A stretch of 64,000 bases of DNA from a virus (Duplodnaviria > Heunggongvirae > Uroviricota > Caudoviricetes), in the IMG/VR virus record IMGVR_UViG_2939521961_000006; one strand, 5' to 3'. Positions 63,001-64,000 of this stretch are shown in pieces. A program made the position numbers. The number at the start of each line of letters is the position of its first letter. Position 1 is the first letter of the stretch.

Positions 63001-64000
63001 CGGATCGACCTGTAACAGATCCGGGTGCGGACAGTGCTGTTTCATTTGCAGCTTTTCGCCCACTCGCCAGCGACGACGACCGGTACCCTGAATGATAAAC
63101 ACGTCGTACTGATCGAGATGCGGGCCGACGCCGCCGCCCGGTACAGAAAAAGAGATCATCAGATCATCAATACGCCAGTCCGGTAGTTCACGGAACGGTC
63201 GCATCAGCGCGGCGGTCGGCTCATGCCAGTGGTTCACTGCCTGTACCAGTAATGACCAGTTGGTTTCACCGAGATGATCGTAGCTTTCGAACGGGCCGTG
63301 GCTGACCTGCCATTTGCCATCCTGGTGACTGACCAGTCGACTGTCAACTTCGCTTTCCATCGCCAGACCCGCCAACTCGTCTGGAGAGATCGGGTCAATA
63401 AAATTATTAAAGCCGCGTTTTAACACCACCGGGCGTTTCTGCCAGTGACGTTCAAGAAAATCGGGCCAGTTAAGAGTGAGTTGGTATTCCATGTTAAGCA
63501 TCCACAGGCTGGTATCTGCAACCGATTATAACGGATGCTTAACGTAATGCGTGAAGTATGGACATATTTTATCAATTAGTGTTTTTTGCCGTTTCATAAT
63601 GTTTCAGATTGTTCATTATGTTTTTGATTATAAACAGATTTGTGATTTTCCTTGTTCCAGCTTGTTTCACGTTGTAGCCCTTTGTGCAACGATCGGTGTA
63701 GTTAATGGTGTAGTTAATTGTGATGACCGGAATCAAAATTATGAGCAGAGCACTTAACAAACTGAGCGATACACAGCTGAGGAAAATCAACGGCACACCC
63801 GCCCAAAAAACAGCCTTTCTTAATGACGGTGGAAACCTGAGCGTCAGGCATTCAACCAGTGGCCTTTTAACCTGGTATTTCACTTACAGGGCCGGAACGG
63901 GAAGGGGGGCACCACCGGAACGCATTAAGCTGGGAAATTATCCTGATCTGAGCCTGAAATCAGCCAGGGAAAAAGCCGCCCAGTGTCGCGCATGGCTGGC

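Follow-up and report, generated by a model that had tools for sequence, protein, structure and literature searches.

[quoted passage not shown] The prototype of the Gram-negative PICIs is EcCICFT073, for which the integration site ycfD-phoQ and the att core GGACATATTT have been described (PMC6092414, Table S1). Experimental proof of helper-dependent induction, packaging and high-frequency transfer exists for EcCICFT073 only, the helpers being lambda and phi80 (Fillol-Salom et al. 2018, PMC6092414, and 2019, PMC6739421). The 2018 paper (PMC6092414) also lists as a PICI an 11.1 kb element of the O26:H11 strain 11368 (integrase gene ECO26_1646, coordinates 1619447-1630554, Table S2), states that some PICIs carry terS instead of Rpp, and found no interference role for two EcCICFT073 genes, c1499 and c1500. 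The element, its ycfD-phoQ site and its att core are thus already published and catalogued.

Two further elements with a related left end are relevant here. Sp7 of the O157:H7 strain Sakai, an element of the EcCIEDL933 type of capsid-forming PICI (cf-PICI), occupies the same site and has the same core. Within its 15.5 kb there is a full HK97-type head and terminase module, which the 11.1 kb element of O26:H11 lacks, and no lambda-type cosN was found in it. The element of the O178:H19 strain 2012C-4431 encodes a ClpP-capsid fusion and has no TerS.

The DNA analysed in this work, referred to as the window, is a 64,000 nt stretch of the IMG/VR record IMGVR_UViG_2939521961_000006. We interpret its last 441 nt (63560-64000), with high confidence, as the left-hand end of an EcCICFT073-family PICI, which most probably continues for a further 10.7 kb as it does in strain 11368. 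The integration system can be identified with certainty from the window alone. The cargo is predicted from the company that this front end keeps in the closest genomes, and over all outcomes a cargo of the 11.1 kb type is likely. The right end of the window contains the following features:

62371-63492, minus strand: roxA (ycfD), the left chromosomal flank, annotated as roxA in the identical sequence of NC_013361.1 and in K-12
63493-63559, roxA side: native roxA-phoQ intergenic DNA forming the B arm of attL, identical to K-12 (L002 3242-3308)
63560-63569: attL core GGACATATTT, the 10 bp direct repeat bounding the island, with its second copy beyond the window
63570-63740, plus strand: P' arm of attL and region upstream of int, 33% GC
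63593-63610 and 63612-63629: two 18 nt direct repeats in the P' arm
63695-63718, plus strand: two tandem copies of the 12 bp repeat GGTGTAGTTAAT, probable arm-type integrase-binding sites
63741-64000, plus strand: 5' end of a tyrosine integrase gene, 86 of 409 codons, encoding the arm-DNA-binding domain

A preliminary description of this DNA, made from the sequence alone, had noticed about 240 bp of AT-rich sequence after roxA, followed by an ORF resembling the arm-binding domain of P4-type integrases. Both observations proved accurate. The gap between roxA and the ORF (63493-63740) is 248 nt long and has a GC content of 35.9%, compared with 50.3% for the whole window. An ATG at 63741 opens an ORF, which runs for 86 codons before it reaches the window edge, and the encoded residues match the Pfam family PF13356 (Arm-DNA-bind_3) with an E value of 1.5e-14 and a score of 54.3 bits (cut-off 27). 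The 86 residues are 100% identical to the corresponding part of WP_000085258.1, the integrase of O26:H11 strain 11368, and 97.7% identical to the EcCICFT073 integrase.

The start of the element was misplaced in the preliminary description, which had put it at 63502. Homology to K-12 ends about 60 nt to the right of that position, at GGACATATTT (63560-63569; the empty site of K-12 is GGGCATATTT), and the same 10-mer recurs at phoQ; the junction is therefore 63560-63569, and 63493-63559 is native DNA. In K-12 roxA is followed by phoQ, as had been stated, with 75 bp between the two genes. GGACATATTT is present at both ends of the elements of O26 11368, CFT073, Sakai and O178:H19. In 11368 the two copies (L001 20261-20270 and 31359-31368) are 11,098 bp apart; the right copy shares 2 nt with the phoQ stop codon, and it is there that homology to K-12 resumes. 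The element of this strain is 11,108 bp long (L001 20261-31368, equal to positions 1619447-1630554 of NC_013361.1), and the boundaries, which were derived independently in this work, coincide exactly with the published ones. In every relative inspected attR was found at the phoQ stop codon. With the core overlapping that codon, phoQ and roxA are both intact after the insertion.

The insertion between roxA and phoQ, proposed earlier as an island or a prophage, was supported by the five closest genomes, all of which have 11.1 kb at this position. The prophage part of the proposal was not, as the inserted element is a PICI satellite. A downstream att repeat and the 3' end of phoQ, for which a search had been suggested, were found in relatives, where the 11.1 kb element ends at the phoQ stop codon. 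The arrangement named at that time as contrary to an insertion, in which the ORF is a short integrase remnant with phoQ directly after it, hardly deserves belief: only 86 codons lie within the window, but none of 10 occupied sites inspected had this structure, and the attL core, the arm repeats and the reading frame of int are all intact in the window.

The native DNA on the roxA side contains a perfect 11 nt inverted repeat, GTTAAGCATCC / GGATGCTTAAC (63493-63503 / 63533-63543), with a 29 nt spacer. It lies directly upstream of the roxA start codon and is present in K-12 too. A scan of 62200-64000 detected no consensus sigma-70 site. With the island in place phoQ is 11 kb away from roxA and from the inverted repeat, and any read-through from phoPQ into roxA could change.

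The tandem 12 bp repeats in the P' arm have a counterpart at the other end of the element. In the relatives a second tandem pair precedes the attR core by 98 and 86 bp, and no further copies of the GGTGTAGTTAAT motif (at most one mismatch) were found elsewhere in the elements. The offsets from the core, +135/+147 on the left and -98/-86 on the right (-97/-85 in O178:H19), are kept in four cargo variants. EcCICFT073 shares with the O26-type element the roxA-phoQ site, the att core and arm repeats at equal offsets. The layout also matches the annotated attP of P4, in which tandem 12 bp arm repeats flank the core on both sides. Judged by this layout and its conservation, the repeats are probably arm-type binding sites of the integrase. 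The two 18 nt repeats may bind an accessory factor of the IHF or AlpA type.

A related repeat occurs at another locus. For EcCI11368.1, an O26 PICI at the yejM-luxR site, the published 'att' is TTTGTAGTTATACGTTTGTAGTTATACGG (PMC6092414, Table S1). TTTGTAGTTATACGTTTGTAGTTATACGG is itself a tandem repeat, and TGTAGTTA is common to it and to the arm repeats found here. Instead of the crossover core, the published 'att' of EcCI11368.1 may represent a repeat of the arm type.

The 86 residues encoded in the window align with the N-terminus of the P4 integrase, and the similarity to P4 extends to the whole protein. The full-length proteins of relatives with an identical N-terminus have, beyond the window, the catalytic domain PF00589 (E=2e-16), and share with P4 Int the architecture of an Arm-DNA-bind_3 domain joined to a catalytic domain. 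They align with P4 Int end to end at 23% identity (E=8e-15; 25% for int in the tblastn search), with the R, HxxR and Y positions in register. An AlpA-like regulator is also common to P4 (orf88, 45%) and to these elements. RNA genes are the usual integration targets of P4-type integrases. Such a target was considered and rejected for this locus: no Rfam family was found within 62-64 kb, and integration is into the 3' end of phoQ, compared with a tRNA gene for P4. The morphogenetic genes differ as well, being lambda-like here and P2-directed in P4.

From the P4-type integrase architecture and the P4-like attP layout one might suspect a whole temperate prophage or a genuine P4-like satellite behind the window edge, but the elements known at this site span 11-15.5 kb and lack genes for tail and lysis. 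In tblastn searches, moreover, P4 sid, delta, psu, epsilon and cII had no homologue in the O26, CFT073 and Sakai Sp7 elements; of all P4 proteins searched, int and orf88 alone had matches in the three elements, with alpha as a further match in CFT073. The probability of such an element is practically negligible, and even when it is taken jointly with that of an integrase remnant the sum is minute. The term P4-type integrase used in the preliminary description is correct for the domain family and silent on membership in the P4 satellites.

To return to the EcCICFT073-family PICI, its distribution was studied in a collection of 5426 complete E. coli genomes. The roxA-phoQ junction was intact and contiguous in 4822 of the 5426, and is interrupted in about 11%. 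The sequence from roxA to int of the window was found in 544 genomes, and at least 80% of the O26-type island in 363. No genome was identical to the window; over its last 25 kb the best match reached 99.5%. Identity in these 25 kb was 99.2-99.5% for the five genomes nearest to the window (2009C_3996, SJ2D, UTAK-15, War and 11368). All five have the same 11.1 kb element between roxA and phoQ, with essentially the same annotated proteins, and in all five a complete integrase gene (409 aa) opens an element that ends at the phoQ stop. The last 13.8 kb of the window are identical to O26:H11 11368.

The 441 nt of the island present in the window are also 100% identical in Sakai Sp7 and in O178:H19, so that the window by itself does not reveal the cargo. 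The same attL and int could open a cf-PICI of the Sakai Sp7/EcCIEDL933 type, 15.5 kb long, which would encode its own HK97-type capsid, protease, portal, connectors, TerS and TerL and would take only tails from the helper. Besides the identity of 63560-64000 to the left end of Sp7 at the same site, this reading can draw on the O111:H11 strain 88-19539, where such an element lies at this site in a genome with 98.9% identity to the window over 25 kb. The integrase of the O111:H11 strain is, however, the CFT073 allele WP_000085269.1, with an N-terminus 97.7% and not 100% identical to that of the window. The five closest genomes all have the 11.1 kb type with lambda-like capsid, decoration and Nu1-like genes, and the cf-PICI head and packaging module (capsid, protease, portal, connectors, TerS, TerL) is absent from the element of each of them. 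We consider a cf-PICI improbable.

Another cargo of the family, either of the O178:H19 type (ClpP-capsid fusion, no TerS) or of the EcCICFT073 type (primase, RppA), is a very slight prospect. The family is mosaic, and 2012C-4431 matches the window at 100% from 63300 to 64000, yet has a different cargo. None of the five closest genomes, however, has either variant, and EcCICFT073 differs from the window at 13 of the 441 nt (97% identical). Jointly, a cf-PICI or another family variant remains an unlikely outcome.

The preferred reading, an island as in strain 11368, predicts the following genes, given here as they occur in the 11.1 kb element:

Integrase, 409 aa, with Arm-DNA-bind_3, Phage_int_M and Phage_integrase domains
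AlpA, matching Pfam Phage_AlpA (E=5e-17)
YlcI, an Icd-like protein and a DUF4222 protein, as annotated genes
RepA/AAA_25-type helicase, 466 aa (E=2e-43)
SSB and a PerC-family regulator
Major capsid protein resembling lambda E, 44% identical to gpE
Decoration protein resembling lambda D
137 aa protein resembling the C-terminal scaffold part of the gpC-type S49 protease of lambda-like prophages
Nu1-like small terminase, 180 aa, in the region L001 29541-30228, with an adjacent cos
93 aa protein

In 11368 all genes are on the strand of int except ylcI (L001), and one internal ORF is annotated as a pseudogene. Matches in Pfam and PHROGs were obtained for AlpA, AAA_25 helicase, SSB, Phage_cap_E, HDPD and Phage_Nu1, and in NCBIfam the integrase, the helicase, the TerS-like, the 137 aa and the 93 aa proteins all scored below the cut-off. 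The gene list of the O26-type element includes no tail, lysis, portal or large-terminase genes. Three iterons of the AAAAGTGAGG type are situated 3' of the helicase gene at a spacing of about 84 bp and mark a predicted origin.

The gene order is common to EcCICFT073 and the O26 element: int, alpA, ylcI, icd-like, DUF4222, rep, ssb, perC, capsid (c1499), decoration (c1500), the gene of the 137 aa protein, a packaging-specificity gene and the gene of the 93 aa protein. Protein identities between the two elements are 97% for Int, 94% for AlpA, 98% for SSB, 96% for the capsid, 95% for the decoration and 94% for the 137 aa protein. The elements differ, outside the window, in two functions. For replication the O26 type has the RepA-type helicase of 466 aa and EcCICFT073 a P4-alpha-like primase of 584 aa; for packaging specificity the O26 type has the 180 aa Nu1-like protein and EcCICFT073 RppA (144 aa).

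The capsid, decoration and 137 aa genes form a trio conserved in EcCICFT073-family islands (L001 27651-29480; L004 15669-17497). The 137 aa protein is 37% identical over 83 aa to a protein of the CFT073 icd prophage and matches the C-terminus of PHROG 53; in a direct comparison with lambda Nu3 no match was obtained. These conserved E-, D- and scaffold-like genes may also have a so far unassigned role in the capsid.

The difference in packaging specificity was analysed at the level of proteins and cos sites. The 180 aa protein aligns with lambda Nu1 end to end (36% identity, residues 6-166 against 3-180 of 181), whereas RppA of EcCICFT073, which matches the solved RppC structure with E=5e-31, aligns only with the DNA-binding domain of Nu1. 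No Rpp homologue was detected in the O26-type element by blastp, and a sequence search of the PDB gave no RppC hit. For the TerS-like protein the PDB search returned chance hits only, and its relationship to Nu1 rests on Pfam and on the direct alignment. Rpp, an adaptor that binds the TerS of the helper and redirects it, is the mechanism of EcCICFT073 and is not a defining feature of the PICI class.

The cos sites of the O26-type element align with cos1 and cos2 of EcCICFT073, and are two lambda-type cos sites in opposite orientation. The equivalent of cos1 (L001 29541-29552), upstream of the TerS-like gene, is GGGCGGAGACCT, one change from the 12 nt lambda cohesive end, in all six O26-type copies examined. 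The inverted equivalent of cos2 (L001 30408-30419) is an exact lambda cohesive end. Compared with EcCICFT073, cosQ and cosN are conserved and the cosB side of cos1 has diverged. We tentatively propose that the O26-type island may supply its own Nu1-like TerS, which would recruit the TerL of the helper to a co-diverged cosB, and would use no Rpp adaptor of the helper TerS. If true, this mechanism would correspond, in a cos-type system, to the TerS strategy of SaPIs. The combination of a Nu1-like TerS with a diverged cosB suggests an uncharacterised variant of packaging hijack. A keyword search of the review by Murialdo & Feiss (2022, PMC9026076) found no mention of this O26/O157-type TerS variant.

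Most of the window is occupied by a large prophage, whose flanks are wrbA on the left (1-579) and potB on the right (58763-59626), and whose integrase gene is at about 576-1886 on the minus strand. On the K-12 map wrbA and potB are roughly 115 kb apart, and given this distance the prophage seems to have arisen by recombination or inversion between prophages that occupied two different sites. The wrbA/potB arrangement of O26:H11 11368 is the same. The window and 11368 differ at 125 positions in the tail-gene region of this prophage (43.3-50.2 kb), and in the prophage interior (about 16578 to 43300) the window is about 2.5 kb longer. The longer interior and the 125 substitutions indicate that the strain of the window is related to, and distinct from, 11368.

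This neighbouring prophage was considered as a helper by homology and rejected: tblastn found no homologues of lambda E, D or Nu1 in it, and the window therefore does not identify a helper. Rfam matches in the prophage (8897-8955, 17550-17748, 24901-25175) were the lambda cIII thermoregulator, isrK, C4 antisense RNA, STnc100 and AgvB, and the C4 antisense RNA was matched together with its a1/b1 target. Immediately to the left of potB, the right end of the prophage contains a cluster of type III secretion effector genes, at about 53655-58489 as judged by collinearity with L001 10356-15190. Its members are of the NleG family, EspW, DUF1076 proteins and a bfpT-regulated chaperone.

For the island itself a life cycle can be proposed. 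Integration takes place by site-specific recombination at the 10 bp GGACATATTT overlapping the phoQ stop codon. Beyond the window the predicted order is alpA, icd-like, the RepA-type helicase gene with its iterons, ssb, perC and the E and D homologues, and then the gpC/Nu3-type scaffold fragment, the Nu1-like terS between two lambda-type cos sites, attR and phoQ. By analogy with EcCICFT073, for which this cycle was established by experiment (PMC6092414, PMC6739421), the island would lie dormant as long as no lambdoid cos helper phage is induced. Upon induction AlpA would switch on excision, carried out by the integrase whose gene begins in the window, and replication would start from the island's own origin. 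Packaging would proceed through its own cos into particles made by the helper, and packaging of helper DNA would be blocked.

Across the relatives an identical or near-identical front end, comprising attL and int, precedes four cargo types: the O26 type, the cf-PICI of Sakai Sp7, that of O178:H19 and the Rpp-bearing one of CFT073. This points to modular exchange of cargo behind a fixed integration module.

The importance of this finding is limited, as the site, the core and the O26:H11 island are published, and it moves no open question. The PerC/Pch-family regulator predicted here is relevant to the control of LEE type III secretion in EPEC and STEC. For the family, at least three cargo types are preceded by a front end that is identical over the 441 nt seen here, and a fourth, EcCICFT073, by one that is 97% identical. 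With the front end shared and the cargo differing, an integrase found at the edge of a sequence therefore identifies the integration system, and not the element behind it.
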